This document shows positions 2,811 to 63,940 of a stretch of 64,000 nt of DNA, in pieces; the stretch's first letter is position 1, and every line of letters begins with the position of its first letter. A program made the position numbers and the translations under genes. The notes beneath the pieces were generated by a model. That model saw nothing but the letters and a program-made list of their open reading frames with translations, made no database searches and was not told where the DNA came from. The stretch is from positions 52,433 through 116,432 of the forward strand of contig CASEYV010000001.1 of NCBI GenBank assembly GCA_949292245.1, read 5' to 3'. The stretch comes from an uncultured bacterium. Its GTDB lineage: Bacteria; Bacillota_I; Bacilli_A; RF39; UBA660.

Positions 2811-2886
2811 TTTAATCCTTTAAATACAAAATATGTTCAATAAATTTATATAAGATACAGAAAAATATAATATCGATAATTATCAT

Positions 2887-3243
2887 TTAATCCTCACAAT
2901 TTTCTGTTTCTTCGTTATCTTCCCAATCTTCTAATTTTAAAATATATAATGCCATTTTTTCCCATTTACGACTAATTTTATCAAATTCAATTTTAAAGTC
3001 TTCCAATGATGTATTTTCATTAAAATATTGTTTAAATTCATATATAGGAGCGTTTCTACCTCTATTATGTTCATTAATATCCAAGTGAATATATGTGTAC
3101 ATTTTTTTATCAGTTAATACAAATGAACCTTTAAAATTTCTCGCATGTATTTTTCCATATACTTTATTATTATAGATAATATCTTTTTGAAATTCTTTTT
3201 TATCTCTAAAATAATCTTCTTTTAAATCTTTTAATCTGAACAT
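2887..3243 (-). CDS. hypothetical protein
   Basis: 118-aa ORF in the minus-strand gene array. Confidence 0.35.
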   Translation of the reverse strand: MFRLKDLKEDYFRDKKEFQKDIIYNNKVYGKIHARNFKGSFVLTDKKMYTYIHLDINEHNRGRNAPIYEFKQYFNENTSLEDFKIEFDKISRKWEKMALYILKLEDWEDNEETENCED

Positions 3244-3304
3244 GAAAAATACTCCTATATTGATTATAGGAGTATATTATATCAAAAAAATAAATTGTCA
3301 ACAA

Positions 3305-3589
3305 TTATTTTTCAATCATCGTAGCAATAATACCTTGACCGATAAAATCTGCTTTTTTAGGCTTACCATTTTCATAAAAAAGAATTGAAATGTCACCTTC
3401 AGAAGAATTTTTAATATATGTTATTCCGTCATATTTCCAAATAATTTCACCGGTAAATGAATTTACAATAATAATTTCTCGTCTTAATTCACCATAATCA
3501 CTTTGATAATTTTTCTTAGTCATTTCCCATGAATTTCCACAACCAGAAATCATTAAAATACAAAGTAAAATACCCCACAATTTTTTCAT
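3305..3589 (-). CDS. putative lipoprotein / secreted small protein
   Basis: Signal peptide MKKLWGILLCILMISGCGNS followed by a Cys (lipobox-like LMISGC). Confidence 0.45.
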   Translation of the reverse strand: MKKLWGILLCILMISGCGNSWEMTKKNYQSDYGELRREIIIVNSFTGEIIWKYDGITYIKNSSEGDISILFYENGKPKKADFIGQGIIATMIEK

Positions 3590-3891
3590 TTATTTTCTCC
3601 TTTATATAATTTACTAATAACACTATTCATTCTCATCATAGCAGCACTATTTGCTGAATGAACCAATATAATTTTTGGTAATGGAAAATTATTGATATAA
3701 AATTCTTCTTCTAGCCAATCTAAAACTTTATATCCTTCAGCTAATCCTTCACCAAGGTCATTATCTAATGAAAGAAATTCAACATTTCCTTTATTTTTTA
3801 TTAATTGGTCAATTGTTTCTTCAACTGTATATGTACGAATATCATATATAGCTGGTGTTTTTCTACAATCATCTAAATAAATATTAACCAT
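3586..3891 (-). CDS. hypothetical protein, possible stand-alone receiver (CheY-fold)-like domain
   Basis: The 101-aa protein has acidic and polar residues at receiver-like spacings: LDD at 6-8, SLDNDLGEG at about 41-49, VHSANS at about 77-82 and KGE at about 98. Confidence 0.25.
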   Translation of the reverse strand: MVNIYLDDCRKTPAIYDIRTYTVEETIDQLIKNKGNVEFLSLDNDLGEGLAEGYKVLDWLEEEFYINNFPLPKIILVHSANSAAMMRMNSVISKLYKGENK

Positions 3892-3909
3892 GATATTTTC
3901 CTAAATAAA

Positions 3910-3987
3910 TGGCATTCCCAGAGGGATTCGAACCCCCACTCTTTTCGTTCGTAGCGAAATGCTTTAGTCCAATTAAGCTATGGGAAC
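3910..3987 (-). tRNA. tRNA-Arg (anticodon ACG), CCA encoded
   Basis: The reverse complement folds as a cloverleaf. Acceptor stem is GTTCCCA/TGGGAAT, D-stem GCTT/AAGC with a GG loop, anticodon stem TTTCG/CGAAA around loop CTACGAA (U33, A37). T-arm is GGGGG TTCGAAT CCCTC, followed by discriminator G and CCA. Confidence 0.85.
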
Positions 3988-4041
3988 ATTGTATTATTTA
4001 GGATAAGTATAATAACTATTTTATAAAATGTCAATGGTTAT

Positions 4042-4563
4042 TTATCTATTAGTTGAACCTAACCCACCTTTTCTTTCACCATCAGTTTCATCATCATAAG
4101 TTATACCATATGGCAAGAAAATTCCTTGGCAAAATGCTTTTCCTCTCTCTAAATCAATTATTTTATCACCATCATTTTGAATTTTTACCCATATATGACC
4201 TTCATTATTTTCATTATTATAATAATCTTCATCAATAACTCCAATAGAATTACCAAGTCTTAATGAATATTTAAAACCTAACCCTGATTTTGGGAAAATA
4301 CCTAAAAACCAACCATTATCAACCATACATTTTAATCCAGTTGGAATTTTTATTGATTGGTTTGGCTCCAAATAAATTCCAATTGGAGTTACTATATCAT
4401 ATCCAGCCGAGCCTTTAGTTGCTCTTGTTGGTAATTTGATAATATCATTTAATGTCGTTGATTGAAATGATTTACCACTTTCATTATCTGTAAATAAATG
4501 TGCAGTATCTTTTTCCCATTGTTCAATACTAATTTTTTCGAATTTTCCAACTCTTACTGTCAT
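4042..4563 (-). CDS. dut: dUTP diphosphatase (dUTPase)
   Basis: dUTPase motifs are present: SAGYDI (motif I), GVIDEDY (motif III) and C-terminal RKGGLGSTN (motif V). Confidence 0.85.
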   Translation of the reverse strand: MTVRVGKFEKISIEQWEKDTAHLFTDNESGKSFQSTTLNDIIKLPTRATKGSAGYDIVTPIGIYLEPNQSIKIPTGLKCMVDNGWFLGIFPKSGLGFKYSLRLGNSIGVIDEDYYNNENNEGHIWVKIQNDGDKIIDLERGKAFCQGIFLPYGITYDDETDGERKGGLGSTNR

Positions 4564-4585
4564 TATTTTTTCCTTTATAAAATAA

Positions 4586-4615
4586 AAAAGTCTATCAAAA
4601 TTATGATAGACTTTT
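4586..4615 (-). terminator. bidirectional rho-independent terminator hairpin (aagtctatca/tgatagactt) flanked by A-run and T-run
   Basis: Perfect 10-bp inverted repeat between dut and the CBM-repeat gene. Confidence 0.5.
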
Positions 4616-4640
4616 TTTAATTTATTAGCAATATTATATT

Positions 4641-5372
4641 TTATAAAACTTCAATATAACAATCAACTAATTCTTCATCTTTGCAGAATGCACCTTCGAA
4701 ACCATCATCGCCTTCTGTTAAATCATATTTGTATGTTAAAACTTCGCCATCAAATGTTTCAACTACATTTCTTACGATTTTTTTAGCATATTTAGTTTCA
4801 GTTCCAGTGATTTTAGTAACTTTAATATAACCTGTTCCAGCAACAGTAGCTTCAGTATTGTCAACTAACATAACAACACCTTGTCTATTTTCATCAGCAA
4901 CAGCAGCAACTAAATATTTGTTATAACCAACTTGTTTAATGATTTTAGCATCTTCTAATGCACCACCACCTAATGTATATTCTGTCCAATATACAACTAA
5001 TGTATATGATTTCCAATTAGCTGAATCAGTTGCAAATGCTTCACTAGAAGTATGTTGTTTTGTACATTCATATTGTTTACCAGATTCAGTTACTTTATCA
5101 CCAATTTGATATTCATGTGTAGCTTGCCAAGCAGCAGGAGCAGCTTCTTTTGCTAAGAAAGTTGATTGGTTATTTGCAGTTTTGCAGATATAATTTTTTC
5201 CACCTTGTGCTACTTTATCACCAACATTATAGTCAGTATTTTTTACCCAAGCAGCAGGAGCATATTCTTGTTCTAAAAATGCATGAATTTTTACTTTTTC
5301 AAAATTTTCTGTTTCTGCATCGAATCTTTTTTCGGCATTAAAAAATCCAAAACCAGCTAAAGGTCTTCCCAT
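4641..5372 (-). CDS. protein with two chitin-binding type-3 / CBM5_12-like repeats
   Basis: Two repeats, AAPAAWVKNTDYNVGDKVAQGGKNYICKTANNQS and AAPAAWQATHEYQIGDKVTESGKQYECTKQHTS, match the W..Y..GD.V...G..Y.C carbohydrate-binding signature. Confidence 0.5.
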   Translation of the reverse strand: MGRPLAGFGFFNAEKRFDAETENFEKVKIHAFLEQEYAPAAWVKNTDYNVGDKVAQGGKNYICKTANNQSTFLAKEAAPAAWQATHEYQIGDKVTESGKQYECTKQHTSSEAFATDSANWKSYTLVVYWTEYTLGGGALEDAKIIKQVGYNKYLVAAVADENRQGVVMLVDNTEATVAGTGYIKVTKITGTETKYAKKIVRNVVETFDGEVLTYKYDLTEGDDGFEGAFCKDEELVDCYIEVL

Positions 5373-5403
5373 TAAATTCTCCTTAAATAAATTATACAGA
5401 TAA

Positions 5404-5436
5404 CAATTTATTTCATTATCTGTATATATTTATTAT
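5404..5436 (-). terminator. hairpin (atacagataa/ttatctgtat) followed by U-rich tract on the minus transcript
   Basis: 10-bp inverted repeat downstream of the methyltransferase gene 5442-6227. Confidence 0.4.
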
Positions 5437-5441
5437 GGTAT

Positions 5442-6227
5442 TTAACTATTTTTAATTCTATCAATAGCATATTCACATTGATTTTCAGATATTTCACTAC
5501 CATAGCAATTTAAATTTAATTGTTTACAAGCAACACCTGTTGTTCCACTTCCCATAAATGGGTCATAAACTATTGAATTTTCAGAAGCATATATATTTAA
5601 TAATTTAGAGCAAAGCTCGCTAGAATAAGTTGCTTTATTTAATTTGCAAGGTCCGTCATTATTTGGGGCTTCAATAAAATTATAAATATTTTTATAAAAT
5701 GTTTGTCCAGTTTTTCCAATTTGTGAAATAGGTTTATTACAATTAAATGTTTTATATTCATTTTTACGACAAAACACAAACACATCTTCAACAATTCTTG
5801 TTAATTTATTTTTACTTGCATTATTTGGTAATGCTGTTCTTTTTTTCCATATGATTCTATCAGCTGTTACAAAATTAGTATTCCTAATAATATCAGCTAT
5901 TGTTAACCAAACTAATCCAATGCCTTCTTTATTTACAGAGCAATCAGAACCATATGAAACATTCCATAAAATTACACCGTTTGTTGACAATACATTATCA
6001 AATTCATTAAATAATTTTACACACCAATCACAATATTCTTGTTGTGTCATATTATCAATATGAATATCATACTTTCCTTCATAATTTTCACGACTTCTAT
6101 CGGTATTAGAAGGACGACCTGTATTATATGGTGGTGAAGTTAAAATAATATCTACTTTAACATTATCTTTTTTAAAATTTTCAATAGTGTCAAAACAATT
6201 TTCATTAAATATTTTTATTTCCGACAT
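5442..6227 (-). CDS. DNA methyltransferase, beta-class amino-MTase (SPPY motif; N4-cytosine or N6-adenine)
   Basis: N-terminal catalytic motif ILTSPPYN and C-terminal AdoMet motif DPFMGSGTTGVA. The order (motif IV before motif I) is beta-class. Confidence 0.8.
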   Translation of the reverse strand: MSEIKIFNENCFDTIENFKKDNVKVDIILTSPPYNTGRPSNTDRSRENYEGKYDIHIDNMTQQEYCDWCVKLFNEFDNVLSTNGVILWNVSYGSDCSVNKEGIGLVWLTIADIIRNTNFVTADRIIWKKRTALPNNASKNKLTRIVEDVFVFCRKNEYKTFNCNKPISQIGKTGQTFYKNIYNFIEAPNNDGPCKLNKATYSSELCSKLLNIYASENSIVYDPFMGSGTTGVACKQLNLNCYGSEISENQCEYAIDRIKNS

Positions 6228-6924
6228 TTTCTACCTCTTTTAATAATCTTTCAACAGCCATATTAAAATATGTTTCATTTTGTTCAATACCAATAAATTT
6301 TCTATTTGTTTTTATGCAAGCTACACCTGTTGTTCCACTTCCCATAAATGGGTCAAGAACAATATCATTTTCATCTGAACCAATAGGAATCATATTTTCA
6401 ATAGGTTCTAATGGTTTTAATGCTGGATGATTCCATTCTTTATTACCACCTATATTCCAATGATAATCTGTTTTTTTCTGATGATATGTTCCAGTTAATG
6501 TTCTGCCTTTCCAAAGATGAACACAATAATCTTTATCCTGATATTTTCCTCTAACATTAGGCAACGCATTATTTCTGTATAAGCATATATCTTGCCAATT
6601 CCATTTATTTTCTTTTGCCATAATTAAGTAATCAATAAATTGTTTTTTAGAACACCATATTTGATAATTTATAGCTTTACATACTCTTTTAAATTCAGTA
6701 AATAATAAATCGATATTAAAACCATCTGATATATTAGCTTGAATTAATTTATCATATGATTTTCTAGCTTTCTTTTCCATTATTTCACCCATATTATCAT
6801 CACTGTGAATAATATAAGGTGGGTCAGTATGAATTAATGTTACTGAATTATCTTCTATTTCTTTAATTACTTCTTCACAATTACCATGATACAATACGCA
6901 ATTTTCAATTATTACTTTTTTCAT
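6205..6924 (-). CDS. DNA N6-adenine methyltransferase, beta-class (DPPY)
   Basis: HTDPPYII near the N-terminus and DPFMGSGTTGVA near the C-terminus. Confidence 0.8.
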   Translation of the reverse strand: MKKVIIENCVLYHGNCEEVIKEIEDNSVTLIHTDPPYIIHSDDNMGEIMEKKARKSYDKLIQANISDGFNIDLLFTEFKRVCKAINYQIWCSKKQFIDYLIMAKENKWNWQDICLYRNNALPNVRGKYQDKDYCVHLWKGRTLTGTYHQKKTDYHWNIGGNKEWNHPALKPLEPIENMIPIGSDENDIVLDPFMGSGTTGVACIKTNRKFIGIEQNETYFNMAVERLLKEVENVGNKNI

Positions 6925-28876: not shown

Positions 28877-30493
28877 ATGGTGAAAAAAGGTAATACTATT
28901 AGATTTGGTAATAAAATATTTGTTATCGAAAATTTCGATTCTGATAATTTTTTATTAAAAGATAAAGAAACAAATATCATAAATTGGGTCAGTAAAAAAG
29001 AAGTAAAAGAAAATTTAGAACCAATAAATTTTTCTTCATCTATATTATTAGAATCAAATTGTCGTAAATCCTCATTTAATAATAATTATATCACAATCAA
29101 TTTATATGAAAATAATAATAGTTCTACATTTGAAATAATTGACGGTAAAAATATATATACTAAAACATATGATTATAATAAAAATCGTGCTATATATGAA
29201 TTTAATAAATTTTTTAAATATACCAATGAATTAACACCATTTAGATTAAAAAAATATGGTTTTTTGTTAAAAGAATCTGAAAAAGAACCTAAATTTAATG
29301 ATGCTTTTTGGAAATGGTTTGGTAATAGTGTATATAAAAACAGTAGAGGTAATCCTTTAATTGCTTATCATAATTCTCCAAATAAATTTAATGAATTTGA
29401 TATTAATAAAGTTGGTTCTCGTGATTTTGGATTTTATGGTTATGGTATTTATTTTTCAACACATAAAAGTATAGCTAGTCAATATGGAAAAAATCATTAT
29501 GCTGTTTATTTAAAAATGGAAAATCCATTTATGTTTGACCGTGAACATTATAAATATTCTATCACTGAAGAAGCATATGCTATTGTTAAAAAATATGAAG
29601 AATACAATTTATTAACAGAAGATGAATTAAATATAGTTCATGAATTAGAAAATATTTTTAATAATACAAAAATTCAAGAAGAAAAAACAACAGTTATTGA
29701 AAATGGACGAACATATCCAACAACAGTTTATCATTTACAATATAAAGATAAAACATATTCAACAGACCCACATATGGTATTAGATGAAAAAGATGCTATG
29801 ACTCAATTTATATATAATGATTTTGGTAATTTATTAAAATCATTAAAACAAATATATAATGTTTGTATGAGACAACGTAATAAACAATTTGCTCAAATGT
29901 TACAAAAAAATGGTTATGATAGTATTTGGGCTGGAACAGAAATAGTAGTATTTAATCCAAAGCAAATTAAATCTGTTAAAAATGTTGGAACATGGAATCC
30001 TGATTCAAATAATATATATGAATCAATGAATGTTATAGAAACAAAAGAATCTCCAATATATATTACAAATAATATGTATGATATTTTAAAATTACAGAAA
30101 AAAATGACATCATTAAGAGTTCTTATTGATGAACAAAAGAAAATATATATGATTGGTAATGCTTTATATCATATTCATGGAGAACTTTTTGATGAAGCTA
30201 TTGAAGCAGGATATTATAATTTTAATAACGAAAGAGAAAAAGATATATATTGGGAAAATCTTCCAGCTATTATAATTGATACAGATGATTTTTTAAAACA
30301 AGAAAGAAAAGATGATTATTTTGATGGAATACTTCGTTGTAATGGTTTTGTTGTTTATTATAGAACTAATAATTATACAGAAAGCGATTTTACTAAAACA
30401 AAACTTTATAATTTATTAGTATCAAAATATAATGGTAAGCAAGAAATAAATGAAAATAAATTATCTATTGGGGATATAGTAAAGAGCAAATAG
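28877..30493 (+). CDS. protein with a PARP-like (H-Y-E class) ADP-ribosyltransferase signature
   Basis: Residues 163-205 are IAYHNSPNKFNEFDINKVGSRDFGFYGYGIYFSTHKSIASQY. The PARP catalytic signature is LLWHGSRTTNF......[20 protein letters not shown]. They share H-x-S, the N-F pair, G-x-GIYF-[AS] and the KS-A-Y tail. Confidence 0.45.
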   Translation: MVKKGNTIRFGNKIFVIENFDSDNFLLKDKETNIINWVSKKEVKENLEPINFSSSILLESNCRKSSFNNNYITINLYENNNSSTFEIIDGKNIYTKTYDYNKNRAIYEFNKFFKYTNELTPFRLKKYGFLLKESEKEPKFNDAFWKWFGNSVYKNSRGNPLIAYHNSPNKFNEFDINKVGSRDFGFYGYGIYFSTHKSIASQYGKNHYAVYLKMENPFMFDREHYKYSITEEAYAIVKKYEEYNLLTEDELNIVHELENIFNNTKIQEEKTTVIENGRTYPTTVYHLQYKDKTYSTDPHMVLDEKDAMTQFIYNDFGNLLKSLKQIYNVCMRQRNKQFAQMLQKNGYDSIWAGTEIVVFNPKQIKSVKNVGTWNPDSNNIYESMNVIETKESPIYITNNMYDILKLQKKMTSLRVLIDEQKKIYMIGNALYHIHGELFDEAIEAGYYNFNNEREKDIYWENLPAIIIDTDDFLKQERKDDYFDGILRCNGFVVYYRTNNYTESDFTKTKLYNLLVSKYNGKQEINENKLSIGDIVKSK

Positions 30494-30588: not shown

Positions 30589-31116
30589 TTATTCAATATT
30601 TATAAGTTTAATTTCTTCTTCTTTTTCTTTTTTATCTTTAAATTCAATAGTCAAAAGACCATTTTCCAATGAAGATTTGACAAATTCTAATGAATCACAC
30701 ATCTTCCATGAATTTTCAAATTCTCTCATTGCGATACCTTTATAGCAATATACTCTTCCTTCACCATCACAAAAAACTCCACTTCCTTCCATAGTAAAAT
30801 CGTCTTTGCCCCTTTTTCCTTTTGAACCTTTAACAGTCAAGACATTAGTTTTTGTATTATATGTTATTTTTAACATATCTTTGGTATATCCAGCACAAGC
30901 TAACTGAATAAAAGTATGAACTTCTTTATGACAATCTGCTTCTTTACCATTGTCATTACAAACATTTACTTCTTCTGTAAAAATACTATATGGTGGGAAA
31001 GTTGTTTCTTTAAAAGAATTACTAAATTTATCTAAATCATCAAAAAAATCTGAAAATCCAATAAGATTACGTTTATTATTAAAGACATCAAAAAATGTCA
31101 TCAAATTATTTGCCAT
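30589..31116 (-). CDS. small heat-shock protein, Hsp20/alpha-crystallin family
   Basis: Alpha-crystallin-like core (ITYNTKTNVLTVKG...REFENSWKMCDSLEFVKSSLENGLLTIEF) and a C-terminal I-x-I motif (LINIE). Confidence 0.6.
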   Translation of the reverse strand: MANNLMTFFDVFNNKRNLIGFSDFFDDLDKFSNSFKETTFPPYSIFTEEVNVCNDNGKEADCHKEVHTFIQLACAGYTKDMLKITYNTKTNVLTVKGSKGKRGKDDFTMEGSGVFCDGEGRVYCYKGIAMREFENSWKMCDSLEFVKSSLENGLLTIEFKDKKEKEEEIKLINIE

Positions 31117-33924: not shown

Positions 33925-33988
33925 TAAAAAAACTCATCTATTTAAGATGAGTTTAATATATCATAATTTATTTTAATGTCAACACATT

Positions 33989-34249
33989 TTATATATTTTC
34001 TTCTGAACTTTCTAAAATCAAATATTTACCTTCATTAAGACCTTTTTCATAAGATTCATTTTTGATTTTTTCTTCAATTCTTTCATCTATTTCATCTAAT
34101 GAATGAATTAAATATTCTTTAATCAACTTTAATTCCGATAATGAACAATTATTAAGCTCATTATCATTGGTTTCATTCATAATACCACCAAATTCTTCAC
34201 AGTCAGCATTGACAATAGAAATGTATGTTTTCAATGTTTTTATTGACAT
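33989..34249 (-). CDS. hypothetical acidic protein
   Basis: 86-aa ORF. Confidence 0.3.
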   Translation of the reverse strand: MSIKTLKTYISIVNADCEEFGGIMNETNDNELNNCSLSELKLIKEYLIHSLDEIDERIEEKIKNESYEKGLNEGKYLILESSEENI

Positions 34250-34250
34250 A

Positions 34251-34847
34251 TTATTCTCCCAATATTTTTATTTGCTGATATATAGTTTCTTCAGCTTTTA
34301 AAATCATTTGCTTGTAAATTTTAAACATTATTGAAGAATCATCTTGAAACAATTCTTTCGCTCTCTTAATAAATTCTTCTTTTTCACCAAGATACTTTTT
34401 AGCAAATGAAGAATCTCTTTTAACAATATCATGACAGTTGTCAATAATATCAGCCAATTTAACAATTATAGAATCAATACTACCTTTTAAAGTATGTTCC
34501 ATATCTATCATTTTTCTAATTTTGCGATTTCCATCTTCTGGTTTAGAAATGTTTGTTAAATATTCAACATTTTTACTATAATATTCTCCAAATAAACTTT
34601 CTATTTCTTCCAATGTAGCATCAGTATCTTCAACAGTATCATGTAGATAAGCCAATTCTTCTAAACGATAGATTATATCCAAATCCATAGGTTGAATATC
34701 AGAGCAAATTTTACTAATTATTTTAGCAACACTAATAGGGTGAGTAATATATGATTCACCTGTATATTTTCTTGTTTGACCTTTATGTTTTTCAGTCGCA
34801 TAATCTAATATTTTATCGTGTTTAAAATCTCTATATTCACTACTCAT
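34251..34847 (-). CDS. small alarmone hydrolase, RelA/SpoT-type HD domain (Mesh1/SAH-like)
   Basis: KHKGQTRKYTGESYITHPISVAKII aligns with SpoT HRKGQFRKSGEPYITHPLAVAEIL. AYLHDTVEDTDATLEEIESLFGE aligns with ALLHDVVEDTDVTLEEIEERFGP. IIVKLADIIDNCHDI aligns with ILIKLADRLHNMRTL. Confidence 0.7.
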   Translation of the reverse strand: MSSEYRDFKHDKILDYATEKHKGQTRKYTGESYITHPISVAKIISKICSDIQPMDLDIIYRLEELAYLHDTVEDTDATLEEIESLFGEYYSKNVEYLTNISKPEDGNRKIRKMIDMEHTLKGSIDSIIVKLADIIDNCHDIVKRDSSFAKKYLGEKEEFIKRAKELFQDDSSIMFKIYKQMILKAEETIYQQIKILGE

Positions 34848-35028
34848 TTTTTAATATCCAATCATTTGATAATATATATTCTGTTTTTAATCCGTAAATT
34901 GGTAAATCATTTAATCCATCATTTACAAATAATTGATTACCAACAAAATAAAAATAATTTGTAGTTAATGATGGAATATAACAATGATTTCCTTGCTTCA
35001 TTTTTGGTAAAATTTCTTCAAATGTCAT
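34840..35028 (-). CDS. hypothetical small protein
   Basis: 62-aa ORF in a tandem array of small ORFs. Confidence 0.3.
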   Translation of the reverse strand: MTFEEILPKMKQGNHCYIPSLTTNYFYFVGNQLFVNDGLNDLPIYGLKTEYILSNDWILKNE

Positions 35029-36763: not shown

Positions 36764-37207
36764 TTATTTGTCTAATAATCCTAAAAATTTTTGGATATTT
36801 TTAATTTCATCCGATGTCATTGATTGATATTTTAAATCAAACTCATCATCTGATAAATTTTTATAAAAATTTCTAATTAAATTATAATTTTTATCATTTT
36901 TATTTTTAGATTGAGCTATCCATTGATGTTTAAATGATTTATTTAATCCACAAGTGCATAACAATTTAAATTGTAAATCTTTATATTTTGATAATTCCCA
37001 ATAATGAGTATTAACATTATTATTAACTAATTTTGTTAATTGTATATGTTGTTTTTCTTGTCCATATATTGCCGACATCCAACGACATAATGTATAAGGT
37101 TGAATTTCTTTTTGTTGTTCTGACGATAAAGATTCAAAATATTGATAATTTTTATTATCAATATTTTTTAATACATCAAAAATATCATTTTTATAAGTTT
37201 TAGCCAT
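36764..37207 (-). CDS. hypothetical protein
   Basis: 147-aa ORF. Confidence 0.35.
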   Translation of the reverse strand: MAKTYKNDIFDVLKNIDNKNYQYFESLSSEQQKEIQPYTLCRWMSAIYGQEKQHIQLTKLVNNNVNTHYWELSKYKDLQFKLLCTCGLNKSFKHQWIAQSKNKNDKNYNLIRNFYKNLSDDEFDLKYQSMTSDEIKNIQKFLGLLDK

Positions 37208-37671
37208 TAATTATCTCCATATTTATATAATACACATTTTATTGGAGATTTTGCAAAAATATCTTCAATAATTTTATATACAATATTCCAATCACCACCA
37301 GCTAATCCACAACCTATTTTATAAGGTATAGCCACCGATAAATTATTATATTCGGCATATTCTTTTACTTGATTTAATGATAATTTTAATGATTCATAAT
37401 CCGTTTGTAAACCAGTTCCATATGATAATTGACCAAAACAATTCATAACATATTTTGAATTATCAACATTTACAATTTGAGTATAACCCATTAAACTATT
37501 TGGAAATTTTTTATATAAATCACATAATATTTTATATTTGTCAAAAATTACAGGATATTTTTTTCTTAATTGTAGAGCTAAACCAGCTCCCATTACTCCT
37601 AAACAATTTGTTTGATGGACAATTATATTTTCCGAACAATTTAATATATTACCATTTATAATATCAATCAT
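37207..37671 (-). CDS. macro domain protein (ADP-ribose binding / processing)
   Basis: NIIVHQTNCLGVMGAGLALQL aligns with YmdB VIVNAANPSLMGGGGVDGAI. LSVAIPYKIGCGLAGGDW aligns with TSVAFPAISTGVYGYP. Confidence 0.75.
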   Translation of the reverse strand: MIDIINGNILNCSENIIVHQTNCLGVMGAGLALQLRKKYPVIFDKYKILCDLYKKFPNSLMGYTQIVNVDNSKYVMNCFGQLSYGTGLQTDYESLKLSLNQVKEYAEYNNLSVAIPYKIGCGLAGGDWNIVYKIIEDIFAKSPIKCVLYKYGDN

Positions 37672-45119: not shown

Positions 45120-47354
45120 TTATTCCCCAAAATAAATTTTATTATCTTTTATTTTTAATAATATTTTTCCACCATTTTTATATTTTCCAAAAACAATATC
45201 TTTTGCTATCACATTTTTAATTTCATTAGTTATTATATGTTTCATAGGTCTAGCACCGTTATTGGAATTTTCAACCTTTTTAACGATATAATTTATTATA
45301 TCATCATTATATTCAAAATCAATCATTTTTTTTGACAAAATAGATTTTAATTCGTCCAAAAATTTTATGCAAATTGTTTTTAATACATCTGATGACAAAT
45401 TATTAAAAGTAATAGTTGAATCAATTCTATTTCTAAATTCAGGTAAAAATCTATCTTCATAATCTTGGTCAGATGGTGTATAATCATCATTACCAAAACC
45501 AATTCGTATTTTATGAGAATTATACGAACCGACATTTGATGTCATAATTAAATAAACATGCTCAAATGAAACTGATTTACCAGATGATGAAGTCAATTTA
45601 CCATTATCCATTACTTGTAATAAAACATTATGTATTTTAGAATTAGCTTTTTCAATTTCATCTAATAATAAAATACAAGATGGATGTTCATCAATAGCAT
45701 TAATTAATAAACCATTACCTGATTTACCATCTCCGAAACCTTTATATCCAGGAGGAGCACCTAGTAATTTAGACACACTATGTTCTTCCATATATTCAGA
45801 CATATCAAATCTAACCAATGGAATATTCAAAATTTTTGACAATACTTTACATATTTCTGTTTTACCGACACCAGAAGAACCTTTAAACATCAAAGATATA
45901 GCCGTTTTATTTGTTTCTCTTAATCCAGATTTAGAAATAATAACAGCTTCACTGACTTTTTTTACAGCTTCATCTTGTCCAATAATTTCTTTTTTTATAG
46001 TATTTTCTAAATTTTTATAAATTTCTTCTTCTGATAAAGAAATATTATTTAAAGGTATGCCTAATAATATAGACAATACTTTATAAATCATATCTTCTGA
46101 TATTTCTTTTTCATTGTGATATGTAGCATAAGCTCCGACTGTATCTAAAATATCAATCGCTTTTTCAGGAAAAAACTTATTATAAAAATATCTATTACAA
46201 TAATCCATTATTAAATCAATTATTTTTTCTGAAAAAGTAACATTAAAATTATTTTCATATAATGATTTAATATTCATTATAATATTTTTAGTTTCATCAA
46301 ATGATGGTTCTTTAACAGTAAATTTAAAAAAGTTTTTTACAAAATTGTCATCTTTTTCAATAAACCTACGATAATCTTCATTAGTTGTAATGCCAATAAT
46401 TTTAATTTTACCATCACAAAGCATTGGCTTAAATAATGATGATAAATCATTTTGACTTGAATAATCACCATTTCCACACATAAAATGTATGTCATCAATA
46501 ATTAAAACTACATTTTCTTTTTTATTTAAAATATTATGTAATGTTTTTACTCTATTTTCAATTTCACCTTTAACCATAATATTTGCAGTAAAAGATAAAT
46601 TATCTAATAATAGAAATTCTTTATCAGTATATTTTTCACTGTAAATTTTTGCCAAGCCTTCTACTAACTTAGATTTACCAACACCATGATTACCAACAAG
46701 TATAATATTTGGTTTATCATGTCTTAATAAAATATATTGTAACAACTCTAATTCATCATCACGACCAATTAAAGGTTGCCATTCTTTCCCCTTTACTTTT
46801 TCAGTTAAATTAATTGTATATTGTGATAAAAATAATTGTTCTTTTTTATTTGAAGAACCATCTAATGTTTCATTTATAATTTCTGATACACGATTAGACA
46901 TATTAGATGAATAAGATTGATAAATTTTTGTCAAAAATAATGGACTAACATTATTTGACAATAATATTTTTTGAGAAAAAGTTTCTTCCATAAACAAAAA
47001 AGATGCAATGACATTTGTTATAAATAAAACATCTTTATTTATAACAACATCTTCATTACATTTATGACATAGATTGCAATATCCTAAAAATACCAAAACA
47101 TGTGGAGAAATTTCTATATTATCGCTTGAACTTTCTATATGTTCCATTAAAGGATAATTAGAAATAAAATCTTCTAATTCTTTTGTAATTTTTTTATAAT
47201 CAATTTTATATTTTTTAAATAACTTTAAAAAATGTTCGTCTTTCATAACGACATATAAAACATGTTCCAAATGAACATATTTTGAACTATAATTTTGGGC
47301 CACTTTTTTTGATTCATTAATAAGTTCTTGTAATCTTTCAACAAAATCAATCAT
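45120..47354 (-). CDS. ClpA-like AAA+ unfoldase (Clp_N domain, two AAA modules, IGF ClpP-docking loop)
   Basis: D1 Walker A LVGNHGVGKS and D2 Walker A FKGSSGVGKTE. The sensor is GARPMKHII. KIRIGFGNDD...FRNRID aligns with the ClpA IGL loop RKSIGLIHQDN...FRNRLD. Confidence 0.8.
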   Translation of the reverse strand: MIDFVERLQELINESKKVAQNYSSKYVHLEHVLYVVMKDEHFLKLFKKYKIDYKKITKELEDFISNYPLMEHIESSSDNIEISPHVLVFLGYCNLCHKCNEDVVINKDVLFITNVIASFLFMEETFSQKILLSNNVSPLFLTKIYQSYSSNMSNRVSEIINETLDGSSNKKEQLFLSQYTINLTEKVKGKEWQPLIGRDDELELLQYILLRHDKPNIILVGNHGVGKSKLVEGLAKIYSEKYTDKEFLLLDNLSFTANIMVKGEIENRVKTLHNILNKKENVVLIIDDIHFMCGNGDYSSQNDLSSLFKPMLCDGKIKIIGITTNEDYRRFIEKDDNFVKNFFKFTVKEPSFDETKNIIMNIKSLYENNFNVTFSEKIIDLIMDYCNRYFYNKFFPEKAIDILDTVGAYATYHNEKEISEDMIYKVLSILLGIPLNNISLSEEEIYKNLENTIKKEIIGQDEAVKKVSEAVIISKSGLRETNKTAISLMFKGSSGVGKTEICKVLSKILNIPLVRFDMSEYMEEHSVSKLLGAPPGYKGFGDGKSGNGLLINAIDEHPSCILLLDEIEKANSKIHNVLLQVMDNGKLTSSSGKSVSFEHVYLIMTSNVGSYNSHKIRIGFGNDDYTPSDQDYEDRFLPEFRNRIDSTITFNNLSSDVLKTICIKFLDELKSILSKKMIDFEYNDDIINYIVKKVENSNNGARPMKHIITNEIKNVIAKDIVFGKYKNGGKILLKIKDNKIYFGE

Positions 47355-47991
47355 ATTTTTCTCTCATTGCTTCAAAAATTTTTTTATCGTCTTTTTCAAG
47401 ATTTACATTTTTTATTTTAAATTTAATATATAACGGATTTCTTTTCGAAATATTATATCTTTGAGGATAACCGGCATTTTCTATTTTTTTAGAAAACGAT
47501 GAATTAAATAATTCATTTGGTTTTATTTTAATTTTATATTTTTCCCCCAATGATACTATTTCTTTTTCAAAACCAAGAATAACATCAAATAAATTAATTT
47601 CAACTATTTTCGTTATAATTAAATCTGAATATTTACTATCGTATTTTATAATTTCATCATTTTCTGGAATTATATTGACGTATATTTTATATAATACACC
47701 ATTTTTATCTTCAATTTCAATACGATTTTTTTTATTATAAAATTTTTTTGATATTTTGATATCTATTCCATCACAATTTACTACACAACCTTGATATGCT
47801 TGTGTAGTTGTTATATCTATAACTTTATTATTGATTATTTTATTAATAAGACCTGATTGAATAGTAGTATCGTATAAAGATTTATATTTCATGAATAATT
47901 CAGCATTACCAGTTTCTTTATTATCTGGATGATATTTTTTAAATAATTGATTAAATGAATTTTTAAAATCTTTATAACTTTTAAAAAACAT
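47347..47991 (-). CDS. J-domain (DnaJ-like) co-chaperone
   Basis: FNQLFKKYHPDNKETGNAELFMKYKSLYD has the HPD tripeptide in J-domain context. Confidence 0.55.
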   Translation of the reverse strand: MFFKSYKDFKNSFNQLFKKYHPDNKETGNAELFMKYKSLYDTTIQSGLINKIINNKVIDITTTQAYQGCVVNCDGIDIKISKKFYNKKNRIEIEDKNGVLYKIYVNIIPENDEIIKYDSKYSDLIITKIVEINLFDVILGFEKEIVSLGEKYKIKIKPNELFNSSFSKKIENAGYPQRYNISKRNPLYIKFKIKNVNLEKDDKKIFEAMREKYD

Positions 47992-49118: not shown

Positions 49119-49868
49119 TTATGAATAAACACGAATATTATATCCAGATGGATAAATTTGTTTTAATACTTCTCCAAAATATTTTTTAGTTAAGGATATG
49201 GCTTCATTCTCATCTTCTGAAGGTGATATTTCAGCCCATAATTCAACTAATTTTGGACATAAAACACCAATAATATCTTTATCGGATAAACGTAAATCAA
49301 CATTATCCATGACATCTCCATGAATCCAACGATTACCATTCCATACATATAAAATATTTTTTAATGGATTATATATAAATCTTAAATCATTTTTTTCTAA
49401 TTCTGATTGAATCCAATTAATAGATGGATTTTTAATTATTCTCAAATTTTCAAATTTTTCAGAAGCACTATTATATGCTAAATCATCAAAACATACAGAT
49501 TCTTGAAACTTTTGACGCATTTTTTCAACAGTTTCTTTTGGAACATTATGAACATTTTGATAATTTCCTTCACATACTTTTATTTCAACTTTATAGTTAT
49601 ATTCTTTTGCTAAATCAACATATGGTTGATAATCTTTAACTTTAATAAAAGTATTAGCTACAGCAATAGTAGGACGACCTTCTTGCATATATTTTTCAAC
49701 AGTTTCTTTGCATTTTTGATGAGCCATATGCAATTTAGATGGATGCCATCTATATTCACCGTCTTCATACATAAATTGGTCAGCTTCAACAACATTATCG
49801 GTTAATTTATGTGCCAAAGTTGATTTTCCAGAGCCAGGAACACCACGAATTATGTATAAAATATTCAT
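49119..49868 (-). CDS. P-loop kinase, polynucleotide 5'-kinase-like (T4 Pnk kinase-domain-like), no HAD phosphatase domain
   Basis: MNILYIIRGVPGSGKSTLA aligns with T4 Pnk KKIILTIGCPGSGKSTWA. No DxDxT motif is found. Confidence 0.45.
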   Translation of the reverse strand: MNILYIIRGVPGSGKSTLAHKLTDNVVEADQFMYEDGEYRWHPSKLHMAHQKCKETVEKYMQEGRPTIAVANTFIKVKDYQPYVDLAKEYNYKVEIKVCEGNYQNVHNVPKETVEKMRQKFQESVCFDDLAYNSASEKFENLRIIKNPSINWIQSELEKNDLRFIYNPLKNILYVWNGNRWIHGDVMDNVDLRLSDKDIIGVLCPKLVELWAEISPSEDENEAISLTKKYFGEVLKQIYPSGYNIRVYS

Positions 49869-56341: not shown

Positions 56342-57001
56342 TCAACAACTAAATACAAAATCAATCCATTTTTTAAAATTAGGATATTTTTCATATCTAT
56401 TTTCTTTTATAACTTTTAACATATTTAAAATATCTTTTTTATCATAGTTATATTTTTCAAATGGATATTTTATATCTGTTTTTTTATTTTTGTATCTTTT
56501 TAAACGATATTTTACAATTTCATTAAATATAATATCAAAATTTTTATCTTTAATATTATTGACCAAAGTAATTAACTCTATATCATCATTATTTAATGAT
56601 TCAAAATCATCGTTTTGATAATACATTGCTTTTTGTCTATTATACAGAATATTTAATTTATATGCTTGCATTGAAGTTAATTGTATATCGACATTATCAA
56701 AATAAGTTGAAGTATTATTTTCATTATCAATAAAATATATGTCTTTAATACTCTCAAAATTATCAACAATAATGTAGCAATTATAATTTATACTAAAAAA
56801 AGCATATTTTTTATTTCTAATATCACTCCATTCATGCATGAAATTTAAAGTATCAATATGAACTTCATCCAGAATATCACTAATAACAGATTCAAATCGA
56901 GTATATATTTCAAGTTGCTTAAAATCGTTTTCTGACATTTCTTTATTCATATAATCCATATCCATATACGGGTTTACAAATTGTTTAAAATCAATGTGCA
57001 T
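56342..57001 (-). CDS. hypothetical protein
   Basis: 219-aa ORF. Confidence 0.35.
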   Translation of the reverse strand: MHIDFKQFVNPYMDMDYMNKEMSENDFKQLEIYTRFESVISDILDEVHIDTLNFMHEWSDIRNKKYAFFSINYNCYIIVDNFESIKDIYFIDNENNTSTYFDNVDIQLTSMQAYKLNILYNRQKAMYYQNDDFESLNNDDIELITLVNNIKDKNFDIIFNEIVKYRLKRYKNKKTDIKYPFEKYNYDKKDILNMLKVIKENRYEKYPNFKKWIDFVFSC

Positions 57002-57714
57002 TAATTATACTCCGTAGTTTCACCTTTACGCAATTTATATGCTTCAGAAACCGATTTTACAAAGCATCTTCCTAAATCATCAACATATCTTTCATTAAGA
57101 GGTCTAATAACAACACCTTCTCTAATTTGGTCTTTATTAGTTCCCAATGTTGTTTTACCAGATGTCAATTCCATAACTTTATCATAAGAATATGGACCAA
57201 CATAAAGAGATGGAACTCTTTCAATTCCAACTTCATCGGCAAATTGCTTGCATTCTTCAAAATTAAGGAATCTTCCTTGTCTTGGTTTTCCAACATAAAC
57301 ATCAAATAATCTATATCCAACTTTACCATTTGTCAAACCATATTTCAAATCTTGCATACCATATGTTTCACCAAACAAAGTAACCATATCATTTTCTTGA
57401 TAAAGTTTTGAATTTACAACTTTTTCTTCGATATTATTTTCTTTAAATGCCCTAACATAATATGCGTTTTCATTAGAAGCATTATTTTTAAAGAATAAAC
57501 CTTTATCTCCTTGACCCTTTGAAGCAATATAAATATCTTTATTTTCGCCAAATGTTTCATCATTTGAATTACCTTTTGCAAAAATAAATCTTGTTTGAGA
57601 ATTGTGTACTAAAATATCATTAGCAAAAAAATTATGATTATATTCTACTTCAATATCATAACGTTTAGAATCATTTTTAATTTTCTTTATATTCTTTATT
57701 GTAAAAACCTTCAT
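57001..57714 (-). CDS. split-intein C-fragment (about 38 aa) fused to the C-extein of an Rnl2/Rnl5-type RNA ligase
   Basis: The start is probably the ATG at 57714 (RBS AGAGGTG). RYDIEVEYNHNFFANDILVHN|S matches intein blocks F and G ending in HN plus Ser. The extein carries ligase motifs III LFGETYG, IV YRLFDVYV and V EGVVIRP. Confidence 0.8.
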   Translation of the reverse strand: MKVFTIKNIKKIKNDSKRYDIEVEYNHNFFANDILVHNSQTRFIFAKGNSNDETFGENKDIYIASKGQGDKGLFFKNNASNENAYYVRAFKENNIEEKVVNSKLYQENDMVTLFGETYGMQDLKYGLTNGKVGYRLFDVYVGKPRQGRFLNFEECKQFADEVGIERVPSLYVGPYSYDKVMELTSGKTTLGTNKDQIREGVVIRPLNERYVDDLGRCFVKSVSEAYKLRKGETTEYN

Positions 57715-58920
57715 TTTCACCTCTTTCTATAAATTTTTTAATTATATCTTTAACTTTATCAAAATTTTCTTTAATATCTTTTTCCCAAACATATAAAACA
57801 TCATATCCCAAATGTTTATATTCCTTAAATTTTTGATAATCTTTATCCCACAATAATTTCGCTTTATCATTATAACCCCAAAATCTTATTAAATCATTTG
57901 ATTTGTAAATTTTTGGATTGGCGTGATAAATATCCCCATTAACTTCAATAATCTTATTGTTTATAACACAATCTGCATATTTAACTTTGTTATTACATAA
58001 TATTTTTTTATTGTTTATAACATCATATCCTTCACTAATTAAAAAATCAAGAACTTTCTTTTCAACTTTTGAAATTTTTCGTAATTGTGTTTTTCCTTTA
58101 TGATGAAATAATGAAATATGAGATTTAAATTTAATATCTTCTCTTTGAAAAATATTTGTTATCCCATAATCATCAAATAATTGTTGTTCCCATTTTTTAC
58201 GACTTTCAGTATTTTTACAAAAATTATGTTCATAACCAAAATTTTTTAAACAAGTTTCTTTATATCTTTGTTTTCTTTCAGCTTCATTGCAAGATTCTTT
58301 AATAGTTCTTGTATCAATATTAAAAAATTTCATTTTTTTAATAATTGCTTTTGTATTAATGCCTGTTTGTTCGCTTATCCATTTGGCAGAATGTCTATTA
58401 ACAATATATTCATTATATAAATATTCTTTTGTTAATATTTCATTTTTATATTTTTGATATTCATTACATTTTGCAAGATGTCCTTGCATAGAACCTTTAT
58501 GTCCATCTTTTTTTATTTCAACTTTCTTATGACAATATTTACAAATTTCGGTGTGCATCTTTTCTCCTTATTTTTAAAATATTTATCAGAAAAGATGCAC
58601 GATGTATCTTTTCAGTTATTATCAATTAATACAGTTTCTGTTCCATCTAAATCTTCAACTGCTCTATAAGCATTTAAGTTTTCACACCATACTAAATGAT
58701 TTCCTGTTAATTTAATAATTGAACCATCTTCTAACTCAATTAAATACCAATTATCAATATTTTCTTGTATAGATGTTCCTAAAACAGGACGATATTCAAT
58801 TTCTTTAGTATCTAAATTATAAGATTTTACCATATCATTTGTAATATCTTTTTCAACATATTCACCGATTTTTATTTTACCATATTTTAAAGAATCAATA
58901 ATAGTATTATAATCTGCACA
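57601..58920 (-). mobile_element. split mini-intein (IntN 58615-58920, IntC 57601-57714) flanking a free-standing homing-type endonuclease gene
   Basis: Canonical intein blocks A, B, F and G sit in two separate ORFs with an endonuclease ORF in a third frame between them. The insertion point is immediately after ligase motif I (KVHG|S). Confidence 0.7.
57677..58558 (-). CDS. free-standing endonuclease, Vsr-like/DUF559 (PD-(D/E)xK) with N-terminal zinc ribbon, inserted between the two intein halves
   Basis: Own RBS AAGGAG. CKYCHKKVEI....HLAKC is the zinc ribbon. C-terminal HLGYDVLYVWEKDI resembles the GYxVLRFWExE motif of Vsr/DUF559 endonucleases. Confidence 0.55.
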   Translation of the reverse strand: MHTEICKYCHKKVEIKKDGHKGSMQGHLAKCNEYQKYKNEILTKEYLYNEYIVNRHSAKWISEQTGINTKAIIKKMKFFNIDTRTIKESCNEAERKQRYKETCLKNFGYEHNFCKNTESRKKWEQQLFDDYGITNIFQREDIKFKSHISLFHHKGKTQLRKISKVEKKVLDFLISEGYDVINNKKILCNNKVKYADCVINNKIIEVNGDIYHANPKIYKSNDLIRFWGYNDKAKLLWDKDYQKFKEYKHLGYDVLYVWEKDIKENFDKVKDIIKKFIERGENEGFYNKEYKEN

Positions 58921-59544
58921 TCCATGAACTTTTTCAGTCGCTTCAAAAATTTCACCATCAATAAAAGCATCCATATATTTTTGAATTGGTTCTACATCAT
59001 ATGGAACAACAATTTCAGTTCCACCATTAAAGATTTCACCACCCATACTAGCAGGAATTGGTTGTTCATATTTTGTAATACCAAGAAAATCGGCAACATT
59101 TTCACCTTCGACAGCAGGTAGCCAACTTATATATGAAGTTTTTTCTGAAATAATAAATTTTTGGTCATCAGAATAACCCCATTGTTTAGCACAACCATGA
59201 CAACCCTCATCATATTCAGTTTCAGTCATAGCTGGATATAAAACACCTTCAGAAAAAATACCACGAAGTTTTAATGGTTTAACACGATTACCGTCTTTAC
59301 CAGCTAAAATACCTTTATTTTTTTCAAAATCCCAAAAATTCATTCTTTTAAGCAACCATTCAGGAAGAACAGCATTTTCAGGAATATATACTACCAAATC
59401 GCCAACATTATAACGGTCTGAACCATCTTCTAATTTATTGGAAATACAAGTATATCCACCAATTTTATACAATGTTAGTCTATCAGCATTTGGGTGATTT
59501 TCTTTTTCATCAATTTTAACTACTTTACATTCAAAATTTGCCAT
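58612..59544 (-). CDS. N-extein of an Rnl2/Rnl5-type RNA ligase (N-terminal HPNADRL domain plus motif I KVHG) fused to a split-intein N-fragment (about 102 aa)
   Basis: N-extein ..VVKIDEKENHPNADRLTLYKIGG...GDLVVYIP...EATEKVHG, then intein block A CADYNTIIDSLKYGKIKIGE and block B GSIIKLTGNHLVW, then stop. Confidence 0.8.
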   Translation of the reverse strand: MANFECKVVKIDEKENHPNADRLTLYKIGGYTCISNKLEDGSDRYNVGDLVVYIPENAVLPEWLLKRMNFWDFEKNKGILAGKDGNRVKPLKLRGIFSEGVLYPAMTETEYDEGCHGCAKQWGYSDDQKFIISEKTSYISWLPAVEGENVADFLGITKYEQPIPASMGGEIFNGGTEIVVPYDVEPIQKYMDAFIDGEIFEATEKVHGCADYNTIIDSLKYGKIKIGEYVEKDITNDMVKSYNLDTKEIEYRPVLGTSIQENIDNWYLIELEDGSIIKLTGNHLVWCENLNAYRAVEDLDGTETVLIDNN

Positions 59545-63346: not shown

Positions 63347-63940
63347 TTATTTACTATTTAATATTTCATTTAAAACATATTCACCAAGTTCTGGTTTAAC
63401 ACAATTTCTTAAAACTTGTCGTTTATTGCTTATTCTACTATTCGCAACAATTTCATAATTATCAAAATCACTTATTTTATTTTTTGTTCTAATAGCATCT
63501 TTAGCAAATTCTTTTTCTCGTATTGGTTTATTACTCCAAAACAAATGTCTTTGTAATAAAACAGTTGGTTCTACTAATGGTTTATAGTATGGAACAACAT
63601 TTTCAACACACCAATCGCCTTTAAAATAAGTTTTTAAAAATATTATAATAGAATATAAACCCATATCTGGTAATATTGGAGCAAAACCTTTTCCCAATAC
63701 ACCAACATTATGTCTATATTGACCGTGAGACTGGCAAGGTGGTGAAGCCCATATAAAATCAAACTCACTATAATGCTTTTCTAAATATTCTAACGCATCT
63801 CCAACTATCATAGTATCATTAGGATATAATTTAGAATAAACTTCAGCAATTTTTTCATCTAATTCAACAGATGTTATTTCATGCCCTTTCCATAATGCTC
63901 TATTACCACCAATACCAGAATATAAATTTAATATTTTCAT
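63347..63940 (-). CDS. DNA cytosine-5 methyltransferase-like protein (short form)
   Basis: Motif I ILNLYSGIGG, motif IV ASPPCQSHG (catalytic PC) and motif VI CVENVVP. At only 197 aa, no clear TRD or motif IX-X is seen. Confidence 0.55.
   Translation of the reverse strand: MKILNLYSGIGGNRALWKGHEITSVELDEKIAEVYSKLYPNDTMIVGDALEYLEKHYSEFDFIWASPPCQSHGQYRHNVGVLGKGFAPILPDMGLYSIIIFLKTYFKGDWCVENVVPYYKPLVEPTVLLQRHLFWSNKPIREKEFAKDAIRTKNKISDFDNYEIVANSRISNKRQVLRNCVKPELGEYVLNEILNSK

Follow-up and report, generated by a model that had tools for sequence, protein, structure and literature searches.

Why would a large, very AT-rich phage carry a stand-alone enzyme of the RelA/SpoT family, and on which substrate would such an enzyme act during infection? 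This question is raised by a gene in a 64,000-nucleotide stretch of DNA from an uncultured source, referred to below as the window. An initial annotation had read its product as a phage-encoded small alarmone hydrolase (SAH) of the SpoT/Mesh1 HD type, and this identity can be stated with confidence: the product of 34251-34847 is a stand-alone RelA/SpoT-homologue hydrolase, with a similarity far above chance. The equivalents of HRKGQ..R..GEPYITHP, LLHDVVEDT and KLADRLHN, from which the assignment had been argued, are all found in the 198-aa ORF, as EKHKGQTRKYTGESYITHP at residues 19-37, YLHDTVEDT at 67-75 and KLADIIDN at 130-137. The protein matches Pfam HD_4 (PF13328) at 40.9 bits (cut-off 27.2, E=2.2e-10), and Pfam HD also lies above its cut-off; these two alone were matched in Pfam, and the synthetase, TGS and ACT domains of longer family members are absent. 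In addition, the protein matches PHROG 990 'metal-dependent phosphohydrolase' (E 1.7e-27) and TIGR00691 spoT_relA (E 6.5e-21), the latter match being confined to the hydrolase part. When it was compared with all PDB sequences using phmmer, the top matches were human MESH1 (4e-14), Drosophila Mesh1 (1.4e-13) and RelSeq (2.6e-11), along with the Rel hydrolase domain of T. thermophilus and bacterial SAHs. Relatives of the SAH occur in 248 phage records (tblastn) and in at least 460 IMG/VR contigs (pattern scan).

Retention of the His/Asp metal ligands in a careful alignment had been named beforehand as a point on which the assignment turns, and none of them is lost. In an alignment of the query with 29 diverse homologues (40-84% identity), the metal ligands H36, H69, D70 and D133 are invariant across all 30 family members, as are the catalytic pair E73-D74 and the substrate-binding residues R26-K27 and N137. 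R108, R111, K112 and K130 form a further invariant surface. A phmmer alignment places R24/K25/H35/H61/D62/E65/D66/D122/N126 of MESH1 opposite R26/K27/H36/H69/D70/E73/D74/D133/N137 of the SAH. In MESH1, we take these residues to bind Mn2+, to make up the catalytic ED pair and to contact the substrate; their numbering and roles reportedly go back to Sun et al. in 2010. Furthermore, an AlphaFold2 model built on the homologue alignment (pLDDT 96.2, pTM 0.92) has the all-helical Mesh1/Rel hydrolase fold. Foldseek put MESH1 (9chy/5vxa), Mesh1 (3nqw), PaSAH of P. aeruginosa (6yvc) and RelH of C. glutamicum (7qod) on top, with a probability of 1.00 and TM values of 0.69-0.85. Pfam HD_4, the PDB matches and the model thus uphold the SpoT/Mesh1-type identity, and judging from its residues the active site is intact and the enzyme probably catalytically competent and Mn2+-dependent.

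A phage origin of the gene is supported as well: genes for tail fibres, for a baseplate hub/tail lysozyme and for virion proteins lie in the window, which also has syntenic IMG/VR contigs of 217-287 kb. Relatives lie on contigs of 201-388 kb, which makes the window part of a large phage. The window is one portion of a genome likely exceeding 200 kb. Its GC content is 25.4%, and it has no close cultured relative, as megablast of the 30.5-38.7 kb region found no match among 50,697 phage records. The tail-fibre module lies on one side and the baseplate module on the other side of an accessory island to which the SAH gene belongs. On the minus strand, the gene order is a DarG-like macrodomain, a 147-aa ORF, RNase H, PTH2, four ORFs of 62-71 aa and the SAH, followed by an 86-aa ORF, an Rnl1 ligase, a 77-aa ORF, a CCA enzyme and Hsp20, and then by a convergent ART-PolyVal gene (coordinates in Table 1).

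Table 1. Features of the accessory island and of the kinase candidate in the window
Feature	Position	Strand	Basis and remarks
DarG-like macrodomain	37207-37671	minus	first gene in the order given above
PTH2-like peptidyl-tRNA hydrolase, 165 aa	35680..36177	minus	upstream of SAH in the window, L001, L002, L006 and L007
62-aa ORF	34840..35028	minus	ORF list; stop overlaps SAH start by 8 nt (ATGAGTAG)
SAH, stand-alone RSH hydrolase, PaSpo-like	34251..34847	minus	198 aa, ATG-to-stop ORF; Pfam, PDB, structure, alignment
86-aa acidic ORF, pI 4.4	33989..34249	minus	ORF list; starts 1 nt past SAH stop
Promoter-like site (TTGACA-16-TATATT, TG-extended), then weak AT-rich hairpin and T-run	33930..33982	minus	intergenic, ends just before ligase ATG
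Rnl1-family (T4 RnlA-type) RNA ligase, 383 aa	32773..33924	minus	motif I KIDG at K102, EGYV at 242, KVK at 255
E. coli-type multifunctional CCA-adding/repair enzyme, C-terminal HD domain, 417 aa	31203..32456	minus	NF008137, 435.5 bits vs cut-off 451
AAA_33 P-loop kinase candidate, divergent	49119-49868		Pfam; 15 kb from ligase; sole kinase candidate in the window

How far do these genes form one unit? The overlap with the SAH start indicates that the 62-aa ORF and the SAH are probably co-translated. In L001, one of the two nearest relatives, the 62-aa ORF is kept at a place apart from the SAH, and the 86-aa ORF retains its position downstream of it; neither ORF has a family match. The element at 33930..33982 may, weakly, mark a transcription-unit boundary between the pair formed by the SAH and the 86-aa ORF and the Rnl1 gene. 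A sigma-70 promoter scan of the region gave 82 sites against 74±9.5 in shuffled sequences, and as promoters are in no excess, the operon boundaries are set by overlapping genes and a single weak hairpin only. The ligase scores 55.5 bits against PF09511 (cut-off 28.3) and has the KxDG motif as K102-IDG; it lies below the TIGR02308 equivalog cut-off (85.5 vs 242) and is accordingly a distant Rnl1 member.

The CCA enzyme had been placed two genes from the SAH, and from this proximity it had been argued that the SAH removes a blocking pyrophosphate so that the CCA end can be reused. In this form the argument finds no support. Three ORFs intervene (the 86-aa ORF, the 383-aa Rnl1 ligase and the 77-aa ORF), the order is not fixed among relatives, and the CCA step is unneeded because hydrolysis of the 3'-pyrophosphate regenerates a 3'-OH without CCA re-addition. 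For example, L001 and L002, relatives at 77-84% identity, have the CCA-Hsp20-ART block about 8 kb upstream of the SAH, beyond the block that runs from PTH2 to the SAH, and no Rnl1 within 10 kb of the SAH. L006 and L007 (SAH 40-42%, CCA 54-58% identical) keep the window order with 2.9 kb of other genes in between and no Rnl1. In L093 (SAH 51%, CCA 55% identical), the two genes share 8 nt, CCA coming first, and behind this pair lie a 72-aa ORF, the gene of a calcineurin-type phosphoesterase and a NUDIX gene. The two genes therefore share one region through several rearrangements in related low-GC phages and form a tight pair once; their association is conserved only loosely in these relatives, and common descent explains part of the co-location because the lineages that bear it are all related. 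The overlapping pair of L093 and the recurrence of SAHs of this family beside RNA-repair genes unexpectedly favour the earlier CCA idea. The L093 contig, which itself looks phage-like and has 25.8% GC, was binned in a 'Bacilli bacterium' MAG, a weak hint at a host among the Bacilli.

The function of phage SAHs has been approached through toxic small alarmone synthetases (toxSAS). PaSpo of Salmonella phage SSU5 and the SAH of phage PVP-SE1 (PbcSpo) neutralise CapRel, PhRel2, FaRel2, PhRel and FaRel (Jimmy et al. 2020, PMC7229694 Table 1); ATfaRel, an SAH antitoxin encoded beside its toxin, neutralises every toxSAS tried, and neutralisation consists in hydrolysis of the toxin's product (PMC7229694). 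CapRelSJ46 was likewise detoxified with PaSpo (PMC9712102). In vitro, MESH1 and ATfaRel restored aminoacylation of tRNA pyrophosphorylated by FaRel2 (Kurata et al., bioRxiv 10.1101/2021.04.30.441581), and PaSpo is stated to take off the tRNA 3'-pyrophosphate installed by FaRel2 (bioRxiv 10.1101/2024.07.05.602228). The background given in the initial annotation, that SAHs reverse tRNA 3'-pyrophosphorylation by toxSAS, is correct on all these sources (PMC7229694, bioRxiv 10.1101/2021.04.30.441581, bioRxiv 10.1101/2024.07.05.602228). Phage SAHs, their anti-toxSAS effect and tRNA de-pyrophosphorylation are therefore already published, and a function for the SAH of the window is a plain transfer by homology; the proposal is sound and not new.

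From the fold, the integrity of the active site, homology and genomic context we infer the activity, substrate range and counter-defence role of the enzyme: it is probably an active 3'-pyrophosphohydrolase that serves as a toxin-independent antidote both to toxSAS-type defence and to alarmone surges. Made during infection, it would be a diffusible antidote of the type IV antitoxin kind, cleaving the 3'-pyrophosphate off the ribose of (p)ppGpp, of (p)ppApp and of the pyrophosphorylated 3'-CCA end of tRNA. It would be directed against toxSAS that serve in abortive infection (CapRel, FaRel2, PhRel and FaRel types) and against any surge of host alarmones, and the outcome would be that tRNA stays chargeable and translation continues. 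PTH2, Rnl1, the CCA enzyme, the DarG-like macrodomain and ART in the same island are further genes for repair of the translation apparatus and for counter-defence. At 42% identity, the substrate range may differ from that of PaSpo. SAHs are promiscuous enzymes; NADPH is a further substrate of MESH1, and PAPS is bound by it as well.

Which of these substrates has been under selection? Gene neighbourhoods across phages bear on this point. When the ORFs within ±3.5 kb of the SAH were clustered at 84 loci, the most frequent neighbours proved to be a calcineurin-like metallophosphoesterase at 34 of the 84, a DSP/PTP-type phosphatase and an AAA_33 P-loop kinase at 26 each, and an Rnl1-family ligase at 23, the window included. 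A cassette of metallophosphoesterase, SAH and Rnl1 with an AAA_33 kinase is present at 19-37 of 80 viral loci. Among the 73 viral loci with at least 1 kb of DNA downstream of the SAH, a same-strand Rnl1 match begins 66-1376 nt past the end of the SAH match in 19, usually in the order DSP, phosphoesterase, SAH, Rnl1, and these 19 form one broad clade of uncultured phages (SAH 57-100% identical, GC 38-46%), so that they are not independent and amount to roughly one lineage. Outside this clade, the SAH of Acidovorax phage ACP17 (58% GC) and an adjoining phosphoesterase gene lie 1.9 kb from Rnl1, and in Pseudomonas jumbo phage Viktualia, Thg1 is encoded two genes upstream. The phosphoesterase of the cassettes is about 36% identical to that of the Rnl/Pnk/phosphoesterase trio of Vequintavirus, a locus at which the SAH itself is absent. 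SSU5, Dickeya JA29 and Rhizobium IC12 have no RNA-repair neighbours of the SAH, and in Stenotrophomonas DLP_6 and Vibrio SRILMA tRNA genes alone lie within 2 kb of it. The association with RNA-end-repair genes is thus recurrent, restricted to certain lineages and not universal, being found in about four lineages, and a physical linkage of SAHs to RNA-repair cassettes was not found stated in the literature searched.

This gene context points modestly to tRNA over alarmone as the substrate under selection. A narrower reading can then be put forward tentatively, as one that falls somewhat short of being probable: PaSpo-like SAHs would be dedicated tRNA 3'-end de-pyrophosphorylases in several phage lineages, a modular part of RNA-end-repair cassettes and not primarily alarmone scavengers. 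Their partners would be Rnl1, a P-loop polynucleotide kinase, a calcineurin-type phosphoesterase, a DSP-type phosphatase, and the CCA enzyme or Thg1, each taking care of a different lesion left by tRNA-targeting defence systems. Since the clearest cassettes already hold a kinase and a phosphoesterase, the SAH seems to have been added there to deal with another kind of lesion. Of such arrangements, the tightest would be that of L093, and a second example would be the window itself (PTH2 ... SAH-o86-Rnl1-o77-CCA, o86 and o77 being the 86-aa and 77-aa ORFs). Against any argument from context stands the fact that accessory genes of large phages cluster through expression timing alone.

A rival view is that only alarmones matter. 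The SAH would then degrade host (p)ppGpp, or (pp)pApp made by toxSAS/Tas1-type enzymes, and so block the stringent response or ATP depletion; tRNA would be irrelevant, and the SAH would lie near tRNA genes only because all of them are expressed from one early or accessory region. The domain is of the SpoT/Rel and Mesh1 type, whose first-described substrate is (p)ppGpp, and several cultured phages have the SAH without an RNA-repair neighbour. Jimmy et al. 2020 proposed that SAHs let incoming phages bypass alarmone-mediated defence (PMC7229694), and the portions of Iyer et al. 2021 (PMC7824862) drawn on here list the 'HD-alarmone PDEases' of jumbo phages as counter-nucleotide-signal enzymes. However, of the five toxSAS that PaSpo neutralises, four work by modifying tRNA and not via alarmones, and in at least four lineages the SAH is physically linked to genes for Rnl1, CCA, a metallophosphoesterase, a kinase or Thg1. 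A role confined to alarmones is thus a serious candidate that we nevertheless consider unlikely.

The Rnl1 gene one small ORF downstream suggests another possibility, namely that the SAH strips the 3'-phosphate or 2',3'-cyclic phosphate from nuclease-cut tRNA for sealing by Rnl1, in place of a Pnkp phosphatase. A 3'-phosphatase-like activity of SAHs 'similar to T4 Pnk' has been described (Kurata et al., bioRxiv 10.1101/2021.04.30.441581), and SAH-Rnl1 adjacency is seen at the 19 of 73 viral loci mentioned above. In the window, tblastn and Pfam scans found no HAD or calcineurin-type metallophosphoesterase, and the cassette partners (metallophosphoesterase, DSP phosphatase and AAA_33 kinase) gave nothing significant by tblastn; neither a kinase nor a phosphoesterase stands beside the ligase, and the AAA_33 candidate has no PDB sequence match. 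However, the clearest SAH-Rnl1 cassettes already have a metallophosphoesterase and a P-loop kinase, the closest relatives retain the SAH with no Rnl1 within 10 kb, and the weak terminator-like hairpin of the window lies between the SAH-o86 pair and Rnl1. The HD domain of the CCA enzyme could also supply a phosphatase or cyclic phosphodiesterase, a capacity that we take to carry over from E. coli Cca. End healing by the SAH is therefore improbable.

Still further from the evidence is a metabolic role, in which the SAH would act like MESH1 on the 2'-phosphate of NADPH or on PAPS and remodel the redox or sulfur metabolism of the host. MESH1 is the best match in both sequence and structure, complexes with NADPH and PAPS included, and its NADPH phosphatase activity is cited in bioRxiv 10.1101/2021.04.30.441581. 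Yet a pairwise E-value of 2e-34 puts the SAH much nearer to PaSpo than to MESH1, for which E is 4e-14 in the PDB comparison, it has PaSpo-type loop residues that MESH1 does not have, and its context is RNA-related and not metabolic, all of which makes such a role very improbable. Finally, a type IV antitoxin paired with a phage-borne toxSAS of the FaRel/ATfaRel kind for superinfection exclusion has precedents in ATfaRel beside its toxin and in the PhRel and PhRel2 carried by phages (PMC7229694), but the flanking ORFs of 62-86 aa are too small for a synthetase domain, scans of roughly 70 ORFs of the window and of the SAH neighbourhoods of relatives brought up no RelA_SpoT synthetase domain, and a toxSAS-SAH module was, for want of any adjacent or operonic RelA_SpoT-domain gene, rejected as scarcely credible.

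What, then, does the locus add? Phage SAHs are already known as broad toxSAS antidotes, and what the gene mainly contributes is one more confidently assigned member, in this case from a large uncultured phage that is very rich in AT. The more useful side result is that the SAH family is repeatedly linked to RNA-end-repair genes. If upheld genome-wide and after correction for phylogeny, this linkage would point to tRNA 3'-pyrophosphate as the substrate for which phage SAHs have been selected, and it would provide a simple marker for composite anti-tRNA-damage islands in phage genomes.

Among the experimentally characterised relatives that were compared, PaSpo of SSU5 comes closest to the SAH of the window (AFL47026.1; 42% identity over 146 aa, pairwise E 2e-34). 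Both proteins are phage-encoded, have a single domain and about 200 aa, and share the metal and catalytic residues and an S/R-PEDGNR loop, whereas the alpha2-alpha3 segment is longer in the SAH of the window (residues about 46-60). The two phages are unrelated, one with a jumbo-type genome of 25% GC and the other of 103 kb, and the SAH of the window lies among PTH2, Rnl1 and CCA, in contrast to SSU5 with no RNA-repair neighbours. Mesh1/MESH1 (HDDC3; PDB 3nr1, 3nqw, 5vxa, 9chy) is the best solved-structure match in sequence and fold; the H..HD..D metal site, the ED pair and the RK pair are identical at about 26-28% identity in structural alignment, but Mesh1/MESH1 is eukaryotic, has an NADPH phosphatase physiology and is without the PEDGNR loop. 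The protein studied here has its stand-alone form in common with the SAH of PVP-SE1 and with ATfaRel of Cellulomonas marina, a PbcSpo-subfamily member that works as a type IV antitoxin; ATfaRel shares an operon with its toxin, whereas the SAH of the window has no toxSAS partner.

On the side of RNA repair, the inventory of group 2/3 jumbo phages by Iyer et al. 2021 (PMC7824862) includes, in the portions drawn on here, an alarmone HD hydrolase, Rnl1/Rnl2, a CCA enzyme, polynucleotide kinase and phosphoesterases, as in the loci described above. Those portions class the HD hydrolase under counter-nucleotide signalling and not RNA repair, and contain no mention of its linkage to Rnl1, CCA or metallophosphoesterase genes. 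The ligase next to the SAH belongs to the Rnl1 family, as in the T4 Pnkp/Rnl1 system, with which the Clostridium thermocellum Pnkp system can also be compared. An SAH is no component of canonical healing-and-sealing systems of the Pnkp type, yet the related SAH cassettes, like those systems, join a P-loop kinase, a calcineurin-type phosphoesterase and a ligase.

In the low-GC relative L093, the genes for the CCA-adding enzyme and the stand-alone RelA/SpoT-homologue hydrolase (SAH) overlap by 8 nt (ATGAGTGA). Next come a 72-aa ORF, a gene for a calcineurin-like phosphoesterase of 293 aa and one for a NUDIX hydrolase. With a GC content of 25.8% and a gene for a cell-wall hydrolase (Hydrolase_2) upstream, L093 is probably a related phage contig that was binned together with its host.

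Among the IMG/VR loci, SAH is found with the RNA ligase Rnl1 in a kept cassette, which also comprises a DSP/PTP-type phosphatase, a calcineurin-like phosphoesterase and a 60-81-aa ORF. This cassette is seen in L020, L022, L052, L056, L075, L082 and other loci, with an AAA_33 kinase nearby, and six of the cassette loci also contain a DUF2828/DUF7788 protein. The window itself encodes a 249-aa AAA_33 protein whose C-terminal half has no family assignment and for which a PDB sequence search gave no match. This protein may be a polynucleotide kinase, and as such a candidate for working with the window Rnl1 ligase.

Features of the window and of related loci (window positions unless a locus is named)
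Feature	Locus	Position	Strand	Remarks
tRNA-Arg(ACG)	window	3910-3987	-	only tRNA gene in window
Two N6/N4 DNA methylases	window	5442-6924	-	side by side
ART-PolyVal ADP-ribosyltransferase, 538 aa	window	28877-30493	+	convergent with SAH island
Hsp20	window	30589-31116		
Macrodomain protein, 154 aa	window	37207-37671	-	NCBIfam model of the antitoxin DarG, a DNA ADP-ribosyl glycohydrolase; 4e-20, under equivalog cut-off
Lon-like ATP-dependent protease	window	45120-47354	-	PHROG 4871, 3.7e-194
DnaJ-like ORF, weak	window	47347-47991	-	Pfam scores under cut-offs
AAA_33 P-loop kinase domain, N-terminal	window	49119-49868	-	GVPGSGKST, E 5.5e-12
Putative RNA ligase piece	window	57001-57720	-	PF09414 RNA_ligase; C-terminal part of Intein_splicing (E 5.6e-06; score of 26.7 bits, under Pfam cut-off of 35.8 bits)
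Middle ORF of apparently split ligase	window	57677-58558	-	HNH-endonuclease PHROG, weak match
Putative RNA ligase piece	window	58612-59544	-	PHA02142 OB-fold domain; PHROG 968 'RNA ligase'
C5 cytosine methylase, N-terminal part only	window	63347-63940	-	at window edge
CCA-adding enzyme and SAH	L093 (JAZNJG010000197.1)	2749-6597		contig binned in 'Bacilli bacterium' MAG
SAH-Rnl1 cassette, example	L052	8529-11781		
Transposase region near SAH	L002	14439-17101		
Transposase region near SAH	L001	19841-20597		

A second RNA ligase of the window appears to lie in three ORFs (57001-59544, minus strand). The arrangement looks like an Rnl2-type ligase into which an intein or a homing endonuclease has been inserted.

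In the closest relatives, L001 and L002, genes for TnpB/IS605-type (OrfB_IS605, Cas12f1-like_TNB) and IS1595 transposases are located a few kb from SAH, which fits the reshuffling seen in the accessory island around this gene. The phage also carries predicted proteostasis genes of its own, namely Hsp20, a weak DnaJ-like ORF and, directly downstream of and overlapping the latter, a Lon-like protease.

The ART-PolyVal proteins of the close relatives have 1207-1248 aa and also contain DUF5662 (L001 1272-4895; L002 2237-5983); compared with these copies, the window protein is a shortened or recombined form. The macrodomain gene, which shares the island with SAH and matches the DarG antitoxin model, is a candidate anti-DarT counter-defence gene.
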